A DNA stretch of 64,000 nt from Amoeboaphelidium protococcarum X5 (lineage: Eukaryota > Fungi > Aphelidiomycota), in the NCBI GenBank assembly GCA_023515725.1, contig JALDTO010000156.1:62001-126000 (forward strand), in the 5' to 3' direction. Under the pieces are notes generated by a model. It ran no database searches. It saw only the letters and a list, made by a program, of their open reading frames with translations, and was not told the origin of the DNA. The position numbers and the translations under genes were made by a program. Within the stretch, counting starts at the first letter, position 1. Each line of letters opens with the position of its first letter. Positions 23,050 to 64,000 of this stretch are shown here, one piece after another.

Positions 23050-24610
23050 TCCTCTGAAAATCAAGCTCTTTCTCAAACACTCATCCTTGTACTGTACTTT
23101 AGAAAATATTACGCAACAGTTTGAGTCTGGCGTTCGACCACTGTTCATAACTCTGGATGATGAGCGCGTCCGCGGATAGTCTCCACTCGGTGGGGTTTTT
23201 ACAAAGCATTTACCAAAGCGTTATCAAACTCAGTGCCATTATCCCTTTGAAGACCTTTTGGTGGACCAAACCCATTCAATCGCAGAGTGTTACAATGTTC
23301 TCAGCCAGAGAAACTTAGCCCTTTCCTGGGTATCGCAAACAACCAGGAAAGTTAACTGATACAGTCAATGATGGCACAAATTTTGGCGTTCCCACCATGA
23401 ACCACATTGTAATACCCATTAAAATCAATTTGCAGCCGTTCCATAGGATGACTGTATACTATAGCCTTGACCGGCATCTAATTGGTGAATTTGGAGAACT
23501 AGATGCAAACTACGCATTGCCTGATAAAGTCCTCCACCCACTTCCTATTAAATCCAGCCTTACACTTCTTGCCAGTACAATAAGTCTCCTAAATCTTCTG
23601 AAAACCCAGCTTTCCATATTCGCCAATTTATCGCGAGAGAATGTCTTAATCTTGAGGTACAATAAAAGACATGTATAATGGTATGTCTCCAACCAAAGGA
23701 CTTCTCTACAGCCCCGCAACGGCCATTTATAAGAAGGAGCACAGAATTTATAGCAGACAGCATCGATAGCATCCTCCAACGTCACGCACTTCCGTTGAGT
23801 CACCTCAGTTCTTCTGATCTTCAACATGTCTATGACATTAAAAGATGTTGGATATTTTTAAAAAGAAGAATATAGCGCTGTTAAACTTTGCATTGGTTAT
23901 ATTGCGTACCGTCTCAACTTGGGGTCCAAGTGGGCTTTAGATCATCCCAACGAGTTTGTTGTTATTAACAGCAACTTACCCAATCATGGAAATGTAATAT
24001 TTGTCCAGTGCATCTTTCTTCAGCTGGACCTGCTCATAACGCATCAATTTTGCCTTTTAAACAGAGTTAAGGTCAGTATATTCATTGAGAATTTACTGGC
24101 AGTGTTCATCCAAGAGGGAGTCATATCCCTTGGTTAGCATTGCATTTTAAACACTGTCCAGCCAGGGCCAGTAATTGCTACCAACAAAAGGAATTTTTAC
24201 CAAACTATTGCTGCACCACACATCTTAATAGTACTTACAGTATTAAAACTTCTTCCAATGCTCGAAATGCAGCAACATACTTTAATACTGACCCCTTCTA
24301 CTTTAACTCTCTCATCTTCTTCCTTACTTGTTCGTCATATTGCCCTAACTCTCTCATCTTCTTCCTTACTTGTTCGTCATATTGCCCGATTTGGAACTTC
24401 TATCGCAACTCTCCAGCAAACTCCTCCCAATCTGCAAAGGGAAATATACCATTCTTTGTTCTCTTTCGCAACCATTCCCATGCACCTGTACCACCACGTA
24501 AGACTTTCGCCATATATAGTATCGCCGTTTCCACGCTTACTGCTCCTGAAGAGACTTCTTCTATGAGTTTTCCACTACCGTTGTAATCTAACAATACAGT
24601 GACCACAGAG
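23050..24610 (-). mobile_element. Decayed transposon relic: retrotransposon-gag fragment plus rve/Ginger-like DDE integrase pseudogene
   Basis: gag: AWEW...WEEFAGELRQKF...LKQKGSVLKYVAAFRAL. Integrase: EDFIRQCVVC, HPMERLQIDF, IIDC, FGPPKGLQRDNGTEF, IRGRAHHP..VER with in-frame TGAs (23301, 23145). No protease/RT/RNase H seen. Confidence 0.8.
24304..24387. repeat. Exact 42-bp tandem duplication inside the gag fragment
   Basis: TAACTCTCTCATCTTCTTCCTTACTTGTTCGTCATATTGCCC x2, encoding GQYDEQVRKKMREL x2 on the minus strand. Confidence 0.95.
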
Positions 24611-31426: not shown

Positions 31427-31841
31427 CGAATGCATCAAAACTGCATTCGATCGAAAGGCGTTTGCAGTTTTTATGCATACGGAATATTATAGTCAGAGGA
31501 AAGCTTTTAAGATGCTGTTTCAAGTAATGTGGACTCAGCATAGTCTAAAAGGTTGATGGGAGAGCTTTTTTGAGTCTTTATTGTTAGCGACTTTCAAATT
31601 CTAGAGTATACTGTCGCACATCGCTGTGCGCAGATGACGCGGTAAGTTCAGTCTTGTTTCAACCGACACCATAACATATCTATTAGTATTGAAGACTTAC
31701 TAGAGACAGATTTACAATATTCAGCGGATAAGAAATTTTAGAGGGAAATTTAATGGGACCAACTCATGTTTCCATAAAAAATTAGTCGAATGCAGTTTTG
31801 ATGCATACGCGCGAAAAGCGAATGTAGATTTTGTGCAAACG
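31427..31841. repeat. Four copies of a 23-bp palindromic site CGWWTGCA-N7-TGCAWWCG arranged as two pairs
   Basis: Copies at 31427-31449, 31459-31481, 31787-31809 and 31819-31841 (last has TGTA). 32-bp spacing within pairs, 360 bp between pairs, in a non-coding gap. Confidence 0.85.
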
Positions 31842-53945: not shown

Positions 53946-54638
53946 ATGTTTAAAATTCGTAGACTGTCCAACATGTCGGAGTTAGTAACTTTAAATGATC
54001 CAGTCAGAATATTTAACAGCTGGTTTGACACGCATAAGAAGGGGTTTCCTAAGGAGTCAAAATATGCCTACAATGCCGCTCAATTGGCAACGTGCGGCGC
54101 CGATATGATGCCATCAGTGAGAACGGTACTCATCAATTGGACCAAGGAGACTGAAGATCGCGGTCTAGTACTTACAACGTTTTCATATTATTGCAGCAAC
54201 AAGGGAAAAGATATTGAAGAAAATAGTAACGTGGCTCTTTGTTTCTATTGGGGTGATAGACAAGTTAGAATACAGGGCACGGCTTAGAAGTGCTCAGATC
54301 AAGTAAATGACGATTACTTTTACTCACGCTCCTTGTCCAGTTAAATCAATGCTCATGCCAAAATGCAGTCTCTACCGCTAGAAGATCGCTCATAGTTTGA
54401 GGATAAAGTTTAAAGCTTGGAATAGAAGTTTGCTGGTGGATAGGTTCCACGTCCAGAGTATTGGGGAGGATATGATATCACGGCAACGTCTTTTGACTTT
54501 TGGGAGAAGGCTGGAAGATTGGATGATAGATTTCAGTTCATTTTAACAAAGAATAATGAGTGGTGTAAATAAAGATTATATCCATAAATAGAGATATTGA
54601 TTCATTTCACAATACATTACAATAAAAGTGCATAGTGA
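53946..54638 (+). CDS. PDX3: Pyridoxamine 5'-phosphate oxidase-like (PdxH/Pdx3), divergent
   Basis: DPVRIFNSWF, PSVRTVL, NKGKDIEEN.NVALCFYW, RQVRIQG, YFYSR, PRPEYWGGY, W..QRLYP. First in-frame TGA is 54636-54638, but the conserved end is at 54584. Confidence 0.85.
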
Positions 54639-54639
54639 A

Positions 54640-54655
54640 GGTGTTTAAAAACACC
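54640..54655 (-). promoter_or_regulatory. Histone 3' stem-loop (H3 copy 1)
   Basis: GGTGTT-TTTA-AACACC, 6-bp stem/4-nt loop, ~40 nt after the stop. Confidence 0.85.
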
Positions 54656-54695
54656 ATTTTACATTCAATAAATGAGATGAAAAGACTCAGAGAGT

Positions 54696-55821
<1,126 letters not shown>

Positions 55822-55856
55822 ATACTCTCACTGAGATGTTTCTATTATCGCACAAT

Positions 55857-55872
55857 GGTGTTTTTAAACACC
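55857..55872 (+). promoter_or_regulatory. Histone 3' stem-loop (H4 copy 1)
   Basis: GGTGTTTTTAAACACC, 35 nt after the stop. Confidence 0.85.
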
Positions 55873-55933
55873 TTCAAATGTTCAGCTCTATTAAGTGAGT
55901 TATTTTGAAAATTACATTTACTATTATATTATT

Positions 55934-56269
55934 TCAATTCTAGTTCATTCTCTCTACTACACCCCTGTTAATTAGATAGTCTTGGAATACAGCTATAAAT
56001 TTAACAGTCTCCACCATGACATCCCTCTTTGAGACGCTTTCGCCGCGCTCCACTTTTACTTGCAGTGATGGAATCAGCAACTTTAGCGTGTTCATGTGAT
56101 GTTTCAACTCTTCTTCACGCTTGCTTTCCTACACAGAGTAAAGTCGCAAGTTACGCATTTTGATTAATATACGATTAAATTAATCGCTTACCTTTGAAGC
56201 TCCCCTTCCTTTTACTGATTAAAGTGGAGCTTGTATACGATTGACTTCAGTTAAACTTAGGCTGCGCAT
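55934..56269 (-). CDS. Small HLH-domain protein (1 intron)
   Basis: After splicing GTAAGC..TGTAG: SKESKREEELKHHMNTLKLLIPSL...VSKRDVMVETVKFIAVFQ, a helix-loop-helix pattern with a weak basic region. Confidence 0.65.
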
Positions 56270-56361
56270 CTTAAGGATCTGCAAAGTGAAAGATAAGATG
56301 GATCACAGCCAAAAATAGCACAAAATCAAACGAAAGAAGTCACATTTCAGAATTTCCGTTG

Positions 56362-58435
56362 TCACTCACAATCCATGTGTTGGCAACCTTCTTCAGCCTC
56401 CATATCATCTTCGACTGGATTACGGTCATCCTGAGGCGCTACTAAGCTCGCGACAAAACTAGTAAGCTCTTCATACTATGAAGGTATCAGTGCTAATCGC
56501 GCATTCACACTTGATAATTATTCAGTACTCAGCTAAATAACTTTCCTGTCATTTAAATCTTTAAGCATCAATCCATCTTTTATGGTTAAGCTTTTCATAA
56601 TATCGTTAACAGTAGAGTTCAATTGAGTATCGTTGGATGTAATTTTTAAGAATTCCAAATATAGTGACTTGATTGCACTATTTACCGAGAGACTTCCACA
56701 CTACTCGAATACAGTTTACACATTGCTATCTAATAGATGGCTTTGATTATTAAGCAGCAGAACACGTAGAATCTGAGCCATGGTGTCATCCTCGATATTC
56801 GTAACACCATTAATGATTAAGACCAAGACTTCTTCATTGAAGGTTTAACGTGTCTATTCTTGCTCAAGTAAAGCGATACATACTTCAACAGTCAATTCTC
56901 TAATTTAAGAGGCAACGTTCTCAAGATTAGACTTGATCATAGAGAGTAAATTGGACTTTAACTACTCAAAATCGATACACTGCTACACCTGCTTATCATT
57001 AAGAAGATCTTTAATCACTATTAACGACTTTATACACGCACTTTCATCAAGCTAACCAGAAGAAGCAGCTGAAATCAGTCTTTTAAATAGACTCATACTA
57101 TGAACACCTTAAACCATTATAACTGATTAAGCAATATTGTAAAAGTTAATTGATGCTTCAGATTAACTAATACCGCCGCCAGCATCCCAAAAGCGGTCTA
57201 AAAAGTCACAGACAGGCTACTCTAGCTGTAATAGCAACTTTGGGATCTTTTAACAAATAGCCATTAACTGGGCTACTGAATGACAGTTAGAGCCGTCCAA
57301 GGCGCGTTATACTAGAGCTGTAAGCAAATGCTACATCAGCAGGTAAAGTCCATTATGGTTTAAAAAAACCTACATAGCAACTCCATCTGCGAACACACTC
57401 TACAGCACAGTTACAATATCCGCATCATTGCAAGAATCATCAGAGTTCTCAAATTACTCGAAATACTATAATAAAGTCTATGTGTCATTGCAATGAGGCA
57501 ATACAGCAGTCGCCAACCTAGTATTACGCCAATTACTAACAACATAATCGTGTGCCAAATCCCTCTAAAATCCACTCTAATAAAGACGTTAGATCACTCT
57601 GCAAGCGGTCAGCCAAACCATTCGATCACGTTGATTACTTAACTGTAGTAAATAGTGATAACAGACAAGATCCATGCAAGATTAAAGGACATCTGGAAGC
57701 ACCAGGGAAAACACTTTGACGCAGTCTAGAAGCTAATTCCAGGGACTGGAAGGCTATAGCTTCAGTAGTCTATCAAAGTTGTCTCTAAACATCTTCAACA
57801 ATAGATCTAGATAGAATGCAACATCATCATGTCCAGAATTGAAGAATTATGCTAACAAAATGATGCTCGTATGCGAGGCCTACATATTTAATGGTCGAAC
57901 TCAGCTTTATAATTAACGAATGATAAATATACCTAAAACTTGTCGCTGCAGCAGGTCAGAAATGCTCTATCTACCAATTTCATGGTAATGTGTGCCATAT
58001 CTTCTGTATAGAACGCGCAATCTGGCATCAAGTCTATAACAACTTCCTGATGAGTAACAGTGTATTCGTTAAATCCATCATACTCTACGCTCAGTTTGTC
58101 AACAAGTAATTGACCGACATCAATAGAACGCGTTTTGATATAAAGCTACTTGCATACTTGAACTCCGATGACATAAAATCGCTTGTCGGTACTTTGTAAC
58201 AGAGTCTACAAGAAATTGTTAAGTATAACGGTATCATGGCTAGATAAACGTTTACTTTCAAATGATCTAACACGCGTTCCATATCGGGATATGCTTCACG
58301 ATCTATAGCCAATTGCATCCATTGTGAAATCTTGTCCTGAGCAGAATCTTCTAGAGCAGTTACAGTGTTGGCATTTAGAGCACTCAGCTTCAGCAGAGCT
58401 TCTTCCAACGTTAACGTGTTTGACAAATCAGACAT
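56362..58435 (-). CDS. Hypothetical alpha-solenoid (HEAT/ARM-like) protein, 2 introns
   Basis: Long Leu-rich helical ORF restored by two GT..TGTAG introns (~58206-58255, ~57880-57931); ends ...QHMDCE*. Confidence 0.6.
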
Positions 58436-58517
58436 AGGAACTTTGAGATTAGTTGATGGATAAAGATTTCAATGAAGATAGAAAGGCGGCAAGCTTTAAA
58501 AATCATCAATTATATGT

Positions 58518-61364
58518 TCAAAATTCATACCACTTCTTTTCTGCCTATTATCGATTGTACTCCCTGGCTCTTGCAAGAAAATCCTCAGAACTAGTGGCAA
58601 GATTGGCAAATTTACTTTCTAGATTCTATAATCTCTCTCCGCGTTCATTTAAAGCGTTCTAAGCGTTAGCAAATGCATTGTCTCCACGTACTTGCGTCTC
58701 CGATTCGGGATCGATTGGTGGTAGCTCCTTATCACGTGTTTATCTACTTATTACAGAATCGTTGGTAAAGTTTGGAGGAAAATCTACAATGGCAAATTAC
58801 AATAATATAGCAGTGCCGGATATTAAAACTTACAGTGATCTATTAGAAGCTTGACTTGATCTGACCATTGAGAGTCATTGACCACATCATCTCCTTTGAA
58901 AGCTCTTTTCATAGTCTCCATTAAAGATGTCTTCTTATCCGGAACGACTCTATTAGGAAATGTAATCAAAGGATCGTGATATTAAGCGACAGGCTGGCTT
59001 CTTGATGCGAATGACGGAATAACTTGTAGAGCATCATACAGCGCAAAAAATCGACCATCCTTGCACGCCGACAACAAGCCATTAGATTGAAACTCAAATT
59101 CACATCCTCTACACATTGCTAGTATAATCACGCGATTTAAATCCCGTTAATCGAGTTGAATAATCTTACCTCAGCCGTTGATCTAGTTAGGAAACTACGG
59201 CAGACTATTAAATTTAAAGCTCCCAGCAAATCAGTCGAAGTTTATCGGTCAATATCAACAATACATCAAGATTATTAATATGATACACTCTAGCATGAGA
59301 GCATTACTCATTTTCGTGTAATTGAAGAGATTGTTCAAGGAGTAAATCGCCAGTTATAGAGTTACACAGTTAAAACTAGGTACAACTGATCAGTGCTAGT
59401 ACGGCAGTATTTTTATCCAGTGAACTTTTACTCTTCTTGCTCATAGACTTTTAATCAGGCTTGGAGTAATGCTGTAATATCTCACACGATTGCCATTAAT
59501 GTCCAGCATCAGCACTAATGATTACTTCACAAGTATAGCAATTATCAAGATCGTCACCTCTGCTAATCTTAAGAACAGATCCGTCAGAGCATGTGCATAT
59601 CACTATTATTGAACCAGTATCATTGGATTAACAACAGCTGGTTATGGACACGTTCTCAGACGGAAGTCTACCAACGTACAAAACTTCTAATGAAGTCAAA
59701 TAAATTAAACTTATCACAGCGTCATCACTTTAAGAAAAGAAGTGACCATCAATTAACCAACAGCGAGTGAGATTTTACTATCCTTCCATCTAGTGAACTT
59801 TTATAGCAATAACTGATTTGACTCCAAACGCATCAATTGTCGGTGATTCCACATTCACAATCTCAATCTGACTTTTAGATAAATTGACAGTCTGTAAAGC
59901 ATTAAGATCAAAGCAGTTGATCAAGAATATAGTTCCATCCTCATGTACAGATATGATCCCAGACCCAAAAGGATACAATTGTGTAAGTCGCCCGCTATCA
60001 GACAGCGTACATTTTAGACTCTGATTGAGCAATAGAGACCCAGATGCAGTATTCTCATACAAATAGCAACTAAGTATTCCTGACGCAGTTCCCAGACATA
60101 TTCGAACATTAAACACCTCAGAGGCATCAGCATCAATATCAACAGATGGTAAACTTGACGCGCTAATACATGAGCAAGTCACGTCTTGCGTATTTAAAAT
60201 CTATTGTAGACCAGATTAGTTCTGAAAGGACTCAAACTTAGCAGCATTAAAGTCAAATTGCAACAAATTCTCTGCTCGCGTAAGGGATATTAAAGCAGGC
60301 GGAGATTTTTCTAACGCGTAATTAGCACCGAGAGTAAAGAGGCCCACCGCACTTAAAGATTCAGTTAATTCAATGGTCTACTCCTTTCTAACCATTTTGA
60401 AGTCTTTATCAAATGTCTTTACCTTCAAAATCTGATTCTAACTCTATTAACAGACAGACCACATGATTAAAGAGTATCGGTCATCTGAATCAACAGGCAA
60501 CCACCATACGTTAGTCAGAATTTAATTTCCAGTACCATTAGAAGGAGCTACTACATCCGATTCCCATAATACAGAGTTGGCATTCCGAGATGAGATGATT
60601 CGAATGAGAGAATTGGAATACACGCAACAAAGGTAACGTCCGTCATTTGTCAAAGCACAGTCTACCAAGCTACAGTTCTCTTACTTGCAGATAAAAGTGC
60701 AAAGAGCAGCCTTTGAGTTTAAGTCAAAGGACACAATACCACCGTGGGAGTAGGCGACGAATATTATACTCGCAAAATGAGGATGACATAGAATCTTCAA
60801 AACTGACTCCGGCGTTTCCACCAAGCATGGCACTTGATAAACAGAACTAATAGAACCATTATCGCCATTCATGACCACGACACTTCCGCTCACAGTACCC
60901 AAGAGCACCAGCGGAGACTTTGGCGCCAGTTCAATGCACGTAATCTTGTCTGTAACATCACATTGTTCATAATCAGGTATCTGCTTTATCAAGTTCCAAC
61001 CAATCACTTCATTGTCAGTGTTGATGGATATGAGCAATCCTTGATTCTATTAGAATTTTAAAAACTTTATCGCAGATCCAGAAGATTGAGCATCGTTGGT
61101 GTATGCTGATAAGTAAGTGTAATCGCCATCCTTATTAATGAGTAGAATTTCACCTTTAAAAGTTCCTAAAGCCAGAACGTTCTAGCAGCAATCGTAATCA
61201 AAGCAGGTTATAGCTGATAGGAGACCCAATCTAAGCAGTTCCACAAGCTCAAATTGCCGAATGACGCTCAGATTCTCCTCTTAGATATTCACAGAGCCAT
61301 TTGAAGTCTTATGCTTATCCACTACCCCTGCAGCCAACTTCTTTAATTTCTTAACGATGCCCAT
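58518..61364 (-). CDS. Tomosyn/Sro7/Lgl-family WD40 protein with C-terminal R-SNARE motif (2 introns)
   Basis: GLLSAITCFDYD..QNVLALGT..GEI N-terminus, WD repeats, C-terminal ALNERGERLQNLESKF...KKWYEF*. Confidence 0.88.
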
Positions 61365-61499
61365 TGTTGCTCATGTATAAGGCAATGTTTAGAAATACTG
61401 AAACTAAAGAAAAGAATGTAAAGCTACAACCGTACAGTACTGTAAGATGAACAAGTAATATATTCAAATAAACTCACTTAATAGAGCTGTACATTTGAA

Positions 61500-61515
61500 G
61501 GTGTTTAAAAACACC
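61500..61515 (-). promoter_or_regulatory. Histone 3' stem-loop (H4 copy 2)
   Basis: Same 16-mer hairpin downstream of H4. Confidence 0.85.
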
Positions 61516-61549
61516 ATTGTGCGATAATGAAAAATCGTAGTGAGAGTTT

Positions 61550-62029
<480 letters not shown>

Positions 62030-62267
62030 TCAAGCCTCACGGAAAACACGACGGTGGCCGCGCTGTTTGAGGCTTCTGAAACGAAAAGTGGAACTGGCAC
62101 GGCTAAAACGCTCGCTTCGTCTGTTTGGAATGAACCACCACGGACGGAAAGTGTCTCAAGCGATAAAAGCCGCCCGTCGCCTCGTCCGTTTCTCTTCTCC
62201 TCTTTGCAGTTTTTGTTATTACAATAATCCTTTTACTTACTCGCACAAATCCTAAAGACATTTCAAG

Positions 62268-62675
<408 letters not shown>

Positions 62676-62715
62676 ACTCTTTGAGTCTTTTTATCTCATT
62701 TATTGAATGTAAAAT

Positions 62716-62731
62716 GGTGTTTTTAAACACC
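62716..62731 (+). promoter_or_regulatory. Histone 3' stem-loop (H3 copy 2)
   Basis: Same 16-mer hairpin. Confidence 0.85.
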
Positions 62732-62853
62732 TTCACTATGCACTATTATTGTAATGTATTGTGAAATGAAATATTATGTGCTCATTTGGACACTGTTCTA
62801 GAGTTATAGAACATGTTGTTAAAGCTGGGCACTAGAGTAAATGTCTTTATCTA

Positions 62854-62907
62854 TGACTCAGTCCGATAGTCAGTTTGTATATACAAACTGACTATCGGAC
62901 TGAGTCA
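62854..62907. repeat. Perfect 54-bp palindrome (no loop)
   Basis: TGACTCAGTCCGATAGTCAGTTTGTAT|ATACAAACTGACTATCGGACTGAGTCA. Confidence 0.98.
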
Positions 62908-63301
62908 GTCTACAAAAAAAATAACATTTACTCAATTTTATTTTTTCAAAAGCTCAATTAAAAATAAAAATAATCGCGGGTTTTTAAAATGTTAAGAATC
63001 TCAAAACCACCCTCCACCAACCAAAATTTTCATTCTTTAAAAATATAAAAAAACAAGTTTATAAAAAAAAAAAAAGAAGTAATAGTTTTGATTTTATACT
63101 ATATAATATTTTGGTTGGTTTGGTTGGTTTAGTTGGTTGTTAAAATATTAAAGTATTAAAGGAGAAAAAAGTTCCTACTACACCTTTCACTTCCGGGGAA
63201 ATGATTTTTAGTAGCCCCCAACCAAAAAAAAAACCTCCAAGTAAACCAACCAAACTTTTAAGGAGTAAAATACTACTACTACACCTTTCATTCACAGTAA
63301 T

Positions 63302-63332
63302 AAAAAAAGCCCCGCAGTAAATTTACTACGGG
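63302..63332 (-). terminator. Hairpin + U7 terminator/3'-end signal downstream of the helicase gene
   Basis: Minus-strand RNA CCCGUAGUA-AAUU-UACUGCGGG-GC-UUUUUUU; the stem is complete only on the minus strand (G-U wobble); ~40 nt after the stop. Confidence 0.6.
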
Positions 63333-63373
63333 TTTGTCATTGTGTTGAGGTTGGTGTGGGTTGTGTTATTGTG

Positions 63374-64000
63374 TCATTGTGTTTACTAAAATTGTATTTC
63401 TATAAGCCTCACTCCATTTGTTGTTCGTGTTATTTTGGTATTAATACCTTTTACTTTGCTCATCTTTCTAAAAAACCAACCACGTTCTTCAACTTTGTAT
63501 TTCAAATTGTAAGTTTTGATATATGACTCGTAAAAATCGTAAAGTTGTGCCTTGGTCATTTTCAATGTCTGGTTTTAATTGTCCATTGAACTAATCAAAT
63601 CTTATCTTTACTTCTCGTCAATTTAATCTCCATACATACAGCTATTCAACATCTCTACAAATTCCGTCTTGAGACTATGAAAAAACTTTGATACACTTGT
63701 GCTTTCAATCTAAACTTCTTCCTTTTCAGTAGTATTAAAACACTGTCTTGGATTAAAACTTGTTGTGTCATAATTGTATAGATAACTAAACACTTTTTAT
63801 TAGTAGTCTTCAGCTTGTATCTTTTCAATCCTTTCACTAAGTTATTCTTTTGTTAAAATTTGGTCAACCTTAAACACATTAAAACGTCTATCGCTTTGTT
63901 CGATTCTAACAGGCAAGTATTCGTTACTAGTAATTACAAAGTTATTCAGATTATTGGTTCTAAATATCTGTTTACCTTTACTTTCAATACTCATACGTGG
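63374..64000 (-). CDS. D5-like/NrS-1-type SF3 primase-helicase, C-terminal part (5' truncated by window)
   Basis: 208 codons without TGA: SIESKGKQIFRTNNLNNFVITSNEYLPVRIEQSDRRFNVF (motif B', sensor-1 TSN, Arg finger DRRF), YLYNYDTTSFNP, winged-helix-like LYDFYESY; 10 in-frame TAA/TAG. Confidence 0.82.

Follow-up and report, generated by a model that had tools for sequence, protein, structure and literature searches.

The closest described counterparts of the element reported here come from the bicosoecid stramenopile Halocafeteria seosinensis, for which a preprint of July 2026 describes 52-nt terminal palindromes beside target-site duplications (TSDs) in endogenous virophages (subtypes 1, 2, 5, and 6) and in one Polinton-like virus (PLV) subtype (subtype 4) (10.64898/2026.07.28.741278). 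As described there, the palindrome-bearing elements carry replication genes other than pPolB together with RVE integrases, and a hairpin-priming model is offered for them (10.64898/2026.07.28.741278). PLVs have terminal inverted repeats (TIRs) of several hundred bp and, in the account of PMC12220804, 5- to 6-bp TSDs that come from RVE integrases, tyrosine recombinases leaving none. Vertebrate Mavericks have (AGT)2//(ACT)2, (AG)3//(CT)3, or (AC)3A ends, 6-bp TSDs, and pPolB as set out in PMC8097293, a paper from which the words palindrome and hairpin are absent.

A literature search that covered little of the subscription journals found the Halocafeteria preprint as the only paper combining virophage, terminal palindrome, and hairpin. 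Within the same coverage, no paper was found that pairs Polinton with rolling hairpin, nor one that links Amoeboaphelidium or aphelids with Polintons or endogenous viral elements. Parvoviruses and AAV have a self-priming terminal palindrome and an SF3 helicase, and their opened hairpin is restored by nick and copy. In the telRL site of phage N15, replicon DNA flanks the palindrome left and right, and the protelomerase TelN cuts through the axis.

The locus lies in a 64,000-nt stretch of the Amoeboaphelidium protococcarum X5 assembly (contig JALDTO010000156.1, positions 62,001 to 126,000 of the forward strand), which we refer to as the window and number from its first letter. Positions 62854..62907 (no strand assigned) form a perfect inverted repeat of 27+27 bp without a loop, which starts with TG, ends with CA, and contains AGTC/GACT repeats. 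Across the whole window, loop-less palindromes have arms of 6 (n=11), 7 (n=4), and 27 (n=1) bases; the next-best arm is therefore 7, and an arm of 27 is expected by chance about 1e-11 times per window. These counts bear out the perfect palindrome reported in an earlier note on this DNA. That note had centered it on TATA; the axis, between 62880 and 62881, lies within TATATA, and the central four bases are ATAT. No second copy of the 54-mer was found inside the window. Computed folding indicates that this terminal palindrome can fold back, the predicted DNA hairpin being a single 25-pair stem with a 4-base loop (-28.8 kcal/mol).

Rfam returned only sub-threshold microRNA matches to the palindrome, a generic hairpin effect. 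Patterns built from it had 0 matches among metagenome contigs, and their single match among viral contigs, non-palindromic and on a tailed-phage contig, was dismissed as chance. A gapped pattern of the end motif matched 15 times, with 0/15 palindromic. A 10-base inverted match between the host flank (62836-62845) and the TIR (62924-62933) would extend the hairpin imperfectly; noticed post hoc and attained by 25/5000 shuffles, it may reflect chance or a target-site preference.

Contigs from 7 of 24 public runs were compared with the window, runs X2, X3, and X4 belonging to sample S1 and X8 and X9 to sample S4. Empty-site contigs in X2, X3, and X4 (S1) and in X8 and X9 (S4) leave the window sequence after 62850. 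The three window bases preceding 62854 differ from the empty allele by only one substitution or a 9-base deletion and are thus probably host DNA. Other flanking sequences join the element at the same border: flank B at 62853 and flank C at 62854 (each in X2 and X4), along with a 32-nt stub that begins at 62854 (X4). Depth bookkeeping leaves over one further unlisted record from 62854 in X2 and in X3, and a contig in X3 that leaves after 62910 may be another flank. These departures and joins agree with the earlier placement of the palindrome exactly at a host/element junction. They also answer the doubts raised with it, since several flanks joined at the palindrome's start mean several insertion sites, so that it is multi-copy and marks the element's end, and a unitig spanning its center in 3/3 S1 libraries argues against a fold-back artifact. 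A virus-like, multi-copy mobile element has inserted next to a histone gene here, and the palindrome forms its very end.

Contigs of X2, X3, and X4 lack the junction of the window's own insertion; there, the empty allele fully explains the depth at 62839-62849. The window's allele was seen neither filled nor empty in these three runs, although X3 is identical to it as far as 62836; the flank-B contig runs through 62853-62883 with no branch. We infer that a short, low-depth link between two high-depth repeats was dropped in contig building; a subclonal insertion or a local mis-join is possible as well. The palindrome's status as an element end is unaffected.

Read depth bears on the form of these ends. 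The 42-nt axis-spanning unitig has depths of 979, 1029, and 411 in the three S1 libraries, roughly 6-12 times single-allele depth in all three, and the unitig that connects the right arm with the interior has depths of 457, 513, and 185, giving core-to-link ratios of 2.14, 2.01, and 2.22. A ratio of about 2 means two arms per interior junction, as for integrated or free opened palindromes, and speaks against head-to-head dimers and hairpin-closed ends, for which a ratio of about 1 or below would be expected. Each end is therefore a complete, opened palindrome rather than a half-site or a head-to-head dimer. Among the contigs compared, none leaves the sequence at the palindrome axis. Hairpin-closed ends, dimer junctions, and free forms were likewise not seen, and the 2:1 ratio implies that none of them is abundant in the DNA sampled. 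For the S1 contigs, no variants are listed inside the palindrome, and hence there are no compensatory changes to score.

One further flank joins the element at a different position. Flank D joins at 62901 in X2, X3, and X4 with one mismatch, which by k-mer logic would fall at 62904. This is the start of a near-direct repeat (62901..62910, plus strand) of the element's first ten bases (9/10 identical), and the copy with flank D begins there, without the palindrome. CCCTG stands both at the end of flank D and at the start of flank C's reverse complement, a match with a chance of about 1-2% when 10 pairs are counted. Flanks C and D, paired by this overlap, therefore probably bound one copy with a 5-bp TSD. 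A palindrome-less end in a copy that appears TSD-bounded suggests that the palindrome could be dispensable for integration. From the same 5-bp overlap, the host bases ATCTA (62849..62853, plus strand) are the predicted left copy of the window insertion's TSD, the far end lying outside the window.

Inward of the palindrome, contigs of X1 and X4 leave the sequence after 63357. We take these loose ends to be the interior behind the other arm, so that 62854..63357 (plus strand) would be a TIR of about 504 bp (30% GC, with short internal direct and inverted repeats) whose second arm is inferred. In X1 and X4, the other arm's interior behind 63357 starts with TCA, so that an outward-pointing gene may stop at the TIR boundary. 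The part of the element within the window is 1.1 kb. The contig carrying the helicase gene described below has a depth of 359 in X1 and 216 in X4, compared with 69-102 for single host alleles, which suggests about three to four element copies, contig depth being a poor measure of copy number. X8 is without cover of 63191-64000, which we do not take as absence of the element from S4.

Several contigs point to variation within the element. In X2 and X3, 62978 is joined to sequence identical to 63239-63268, suggestive of a TIR variant with a tandem duplication of about 290 bp. X1 and X4 contain a second TIR variant over 63043-63296 that is about 7% diverged (17 differences), as well as a diverged helicase-gene end behind 63358; together, these suggest two subfamilies.

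The remainder of the window (63374..64000, minus strand) holds the 3' end, 208 codons, of a gene for a DUF5906/NrS-1-type SF3 helicase, recognized by profile and sequence matches. The gene points toward the TIR and runs off the window, with about 450 non-coding bases between it and the palindrome. It has ten in-frame TAA/TAG codons, read as Gln, and is by this measure adapted to the code of its host. Reassignment of TAA/TAG has been reported for Amoeboaphelidium protococcarum (PMC5304391). In the window, long host frames translated with table 6 give Pfam matches in 6/6 proteins scanned, the families being histones, ankyrin plus DIL, pyridoxamine phosphate oxidase, WD40, and synaptobrevin.

For the 208-residue fragment, DUF5906 gives a weak match (E 5e-4) that falls short of the curated cut-off. 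Further matches are to a PHROG primase, covering residues 2-201 (E 0.004), to PDB chains of the NrS-1 primase (E 4.3e-6), and to four phage records. A full-library protein search (E up to 0.001) returned 87 matches, of which the top one is the query's own first 50 residues; among the remaining 86, 35 reach 650 residues or more. DUF5906 is present in all 14 matches that were scanned, 6 of which also carry PriCT_2 and 2 Prim-Pol, and a crude pattern finds a PolA-like motif in 6/35 long matches. The relatives' N-termini are of the Prim-Pol/PriCT_2 or PolA-like kind, with HUH families in 0/14 scanned; the gene's own N-terminus lies outside the window. An N...DRR motif is invariant in 13 aligned sequences. 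Of 30 matches looked up, most sit on contigs of <25 kb and one bears a eukaryotic name, a protein (P0023) on a 1.1-Mb contig of the chytrid Powellomyces hirtus. In the Atlas, the three nearest clusters of relative P0004 are mostly Preplasmiviricota, and the neighbors of the best full-length match (P0003) are mostly tailed-phage clusters plus one parabasalid cluster; because of these latter neighbors, the helicase does not fix the element's class.

A biofilm metagenome contains a diverged relative of the helicase gene, with 31 differences over 261 aligned bases. No related loci were found by protein for P0001 or for its relatives P0004, P0003, P0007, and P0069, and one candidate locus (L002) turned out to be a coincidental match in a P2-like prophage that falls in no listed ORF frame. 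A word-indexed protein search gave no match. A single-sequence structure model reached a pLDDT of 39, and a fold search with it gave no match at E up to 0.001; its second-ranked entry, a virophage helicase/primase at E 0.045, is a hint only.

From its 1.1-kb end, the element is likely a PLV or virophage that works like the Halocafeteria elements. Its GC content is lower than the host's (29% at 62908-64000 versus 38% in host DNA at 55900-61500), and its TIR of about 504 bp, with a predicted second arm, falls within the several hundred bp known for these groups; the single 5-bp overlap of flanks C and D (chance 1-2%) would be a TSD of the 5-6 bp typical there if the two flanks bound one copy. 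The C-terminal part of an SF3 helicase is a replication gene of the PLV/virophage kind (pPolB, D5/AEP-SF3, or PolA-SF3), a type common in tailed phages too. Members of these groups (Polisuviricotina) are 14-40 kb long and further carry a double jelly-roll major capsid protein, a minor capsid protein, a packaging ATPase, and an RVE integrase or tyrosine recombinase; any such genes here, like any polymerase (pPolB included) or nickase gene, would lie in the element's interior beyond the window. LTR retrotransposon and Ginger-type ends are also TG...CA; both were set aside because this element has a 500-bp inverted arm and a helicase gene of the primase type.

Compared by description, the Halocafeteria elements and the present one share a roughly 50-nt palindrome where the TIR meets the TSD (a probable one here), TIRs of several hundred bp, a GC content below that of the host, and a replication gene near one end, which in Halocafeteria is a D5 or PolA-SF3 helicase gene rather than pPolB and here an SF3 helicase gene (10.64898/2026.07.28.741278). 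They differ in host, a bicosoecid stramenopile in one case and a fungus-like eukaryote with TAA/TAG read as Gln in the other; moreover, the helicase gene here is in the host's variant code, and one end here is without a palindrome. The classical Polintons/Mavericks of vertebrates, in the account of PMC8097293, are alike in the TIRs of the integrated element and a short TSD, but the tip of the present element is a 54-bp palindrome with TG...CA termini, and its probable TSD measures 5 bp. Neither the AG/AGT end motifs nor the 6-bp TSD of classical Polintons was seen, the ends here reading TGACTCAG... and the probable TSD being 5 bp. Parvoviruses and AAV resemble it in a terminal palindrome able to self-prime and in an SF3 helicase. 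Unlike theirs, the present helicase belongs to the DUF5906/NrS-1 primase-helicase type, the stem is a simple one of 27 bp and not T-shaped, and a 500-bp TIR with a TSD points to integrase-mediated insertion.

Our preferred reading, to which we assign a probability of about 0.55, is that the palindrome is the opened form of a terminal hairpin that primes replication of a PLV/virophage-type element without protein priming. It rests on the reasoning that a linear element must copy its ends and that a perfect loop-less palindrome at the tip adjoins a primase-type SF3 helicase gene. After excision, the 3' end would fold on itself at the TATATA axis to form a hairpin of 27 bp, and the element's primase- or PolA-type polymerase and SF3 helicase would extend the folded end. 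The hairpin would then be nicked 27 bases from the tip and copied, restoring the full duplex palindrome as in parvovirus terminal resolution; such restoration would keep the arms perfectly matched. The restored CA-3' end would be joined to host DNA by a retroviral-type integrase, with a 5-bp duplication. The copy with flank D appears to have lost the palindrome at that end, likely by slippage between the 9-of-10 direct repeats at the stem base. Each of these steps (fold-back, extension, nick, and integrase joining) is predicted from the arrangement of the locus.

Other explanations have to be weighed against this one. The tip palindrome could be a double-stranded dyad for the integrase or the primase-helicase, used in end recognition or as an origin and never as a hairpin primer. 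It lies exactly where end-binding proteins act, the AGTC/GACT repeats inside it would suit such a role, and the depth ratios show no hairpin-closed or dimer forms; binding dyads, however, seldom need 27 perfectly paired bases without a spacer. The preprint's finding that palindromes occur preferentially in elements lacking pPolB points instead to an end-replication problem (10.64898/2026.07.28.741278), and we hold the dyad to be a minority prospect, roughly a one-in-five matter. Less probable again is a by-product, a functionless duplication that arose when the end of the TIR folded back and then spread by copying to most ends, with the form at flank D ancestral. That end also starts with a TGA.TCAGTC motif and appears truly integrated, and accidental annealing after single-strand breaks is the preprint's own alternative (10.64898/2026.07.28.741278). 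Yet palindrome-type ends outnumber the single D-type flank seen. Long perfect palindromes, moreover, tend to be deleted. Palindromes of similar size also recur in five element subtypes within an unrelated host (10.64898/2026.07.28.741278).

The earlier note had also raised a resolution site of the N15 telRL type. A protelomerase cutting the axis at both ends would release a linear, hairpin-ended element, and palindromes at both ends would indeed permit release as a closed linear molecule. The size and AT-rich axis resemble telomere-resolvase substrates, and the palindrome is similar in length to telRL. Here, however, host DNA abuts the whole palindrome, and cutting the axis would sever the host chromosome; half-site junctions were not seen, no compared contig leaves the sequence at the axis, and the depth ratio is 2.0-2.2 rather than about 1. 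TG...CA ends with a probable 5-bp TSD typify RVE integrases, not tyrosine recombinases (PMC12220804), and a blastn search against 50,697 phage records, a weak test, gave three short chance matches only. We consider the resolvase reading unlikely and the hairpin-end reading plausible: of the earlier proposal of hairpin termini, the opened-hairpin origin and a non-protein-primed mode fit the SF3 helicase gene, and the N15-type site is the part that falls away. Least probable of all, and by our estimate very improbable, is an artifact, either a fold-back chimera or an element end mis-joined onto the histone flank. The missing junction of the window's own insertion would fit it, but the axis-spanning unitig recurs in every S1 library, other flanks join at the same base, and the empty allele puts the break within 3 bases of the palindrome's start; at most, an artifact could concern this one insertion, not the palindrome.

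The hairpin-end phenomenon itself is already described for another host in the preprint (10.64898/2026.07.28.741278); what the present locus adds is an independent case in a distant, probably fungus-related host, the element carrying a replication gene of the kind predicted. Its insertions are recent and polymorphic, empty alleles exist, and one natural end is palindrome-less, which opens the hairpin model to direct testing. More tentatively, and with the odds against it, fungus-related algal parasites may harbor an element family that replicates by rolling hairpin with a phage-type primase-/PolA-SF3 helicase and no known HUH nickase, and that inserts the opened palindrome. Its hairpins would possibly be resolved by its own integrase, the resolved end being the CA-3' end that the integrase joins. 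If true, this would be a third solution to end replication among Polinton-like elements, arising in at least two eukaryotic supergroups, and the family may be capsid-less.

The insertion lies in the AT-rich 3' flank (62676..62853, plus strand; 178 bases) of a host histone H3 gene (62268..62675, plus strand), whose divergent partner is a histone H4 gene (61550-61861, minus strand), both identified by Pfam scan. The earlier note had placed the palindrome at a compositional boundary. Contigs put the junction at 62853/62854 and a Markov model places the change point at 62911, but the GC drop starts near 62680-62690, at the end of the H3 coding sequence; because the fall already begins at the H3 stop, the junction could not be placed by composition alone.

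The same flank holds a 23-mer with a 6-bp stem and a 4-base loop, identical copies of which follow all four H3/H4 genes (54636-54658, 55854-55876, 61496-61518, and 62713-62735). Three of the four match Rfam Histone3 below its gathering score (about 18 bits versus 34); a histone 3' stem-loop of the metazoan type would be interesting in a host related to fungi. The four genes form two divergent H3/H4 pairs (54594-55912 and 61460-62777), an inverted duplication that is 92-98% identical and about 5.5 kb apart. Elsewhere in the window are a cysteine-rich, metallothionein-like repeat frame (1608-2171), a pair of 24-bp inverted arms, 96% complementary with 335 bases between them, that is possibly a miniature transposon (31427-31809), and an exact tandem duplication of 42 bases (24304-24387).
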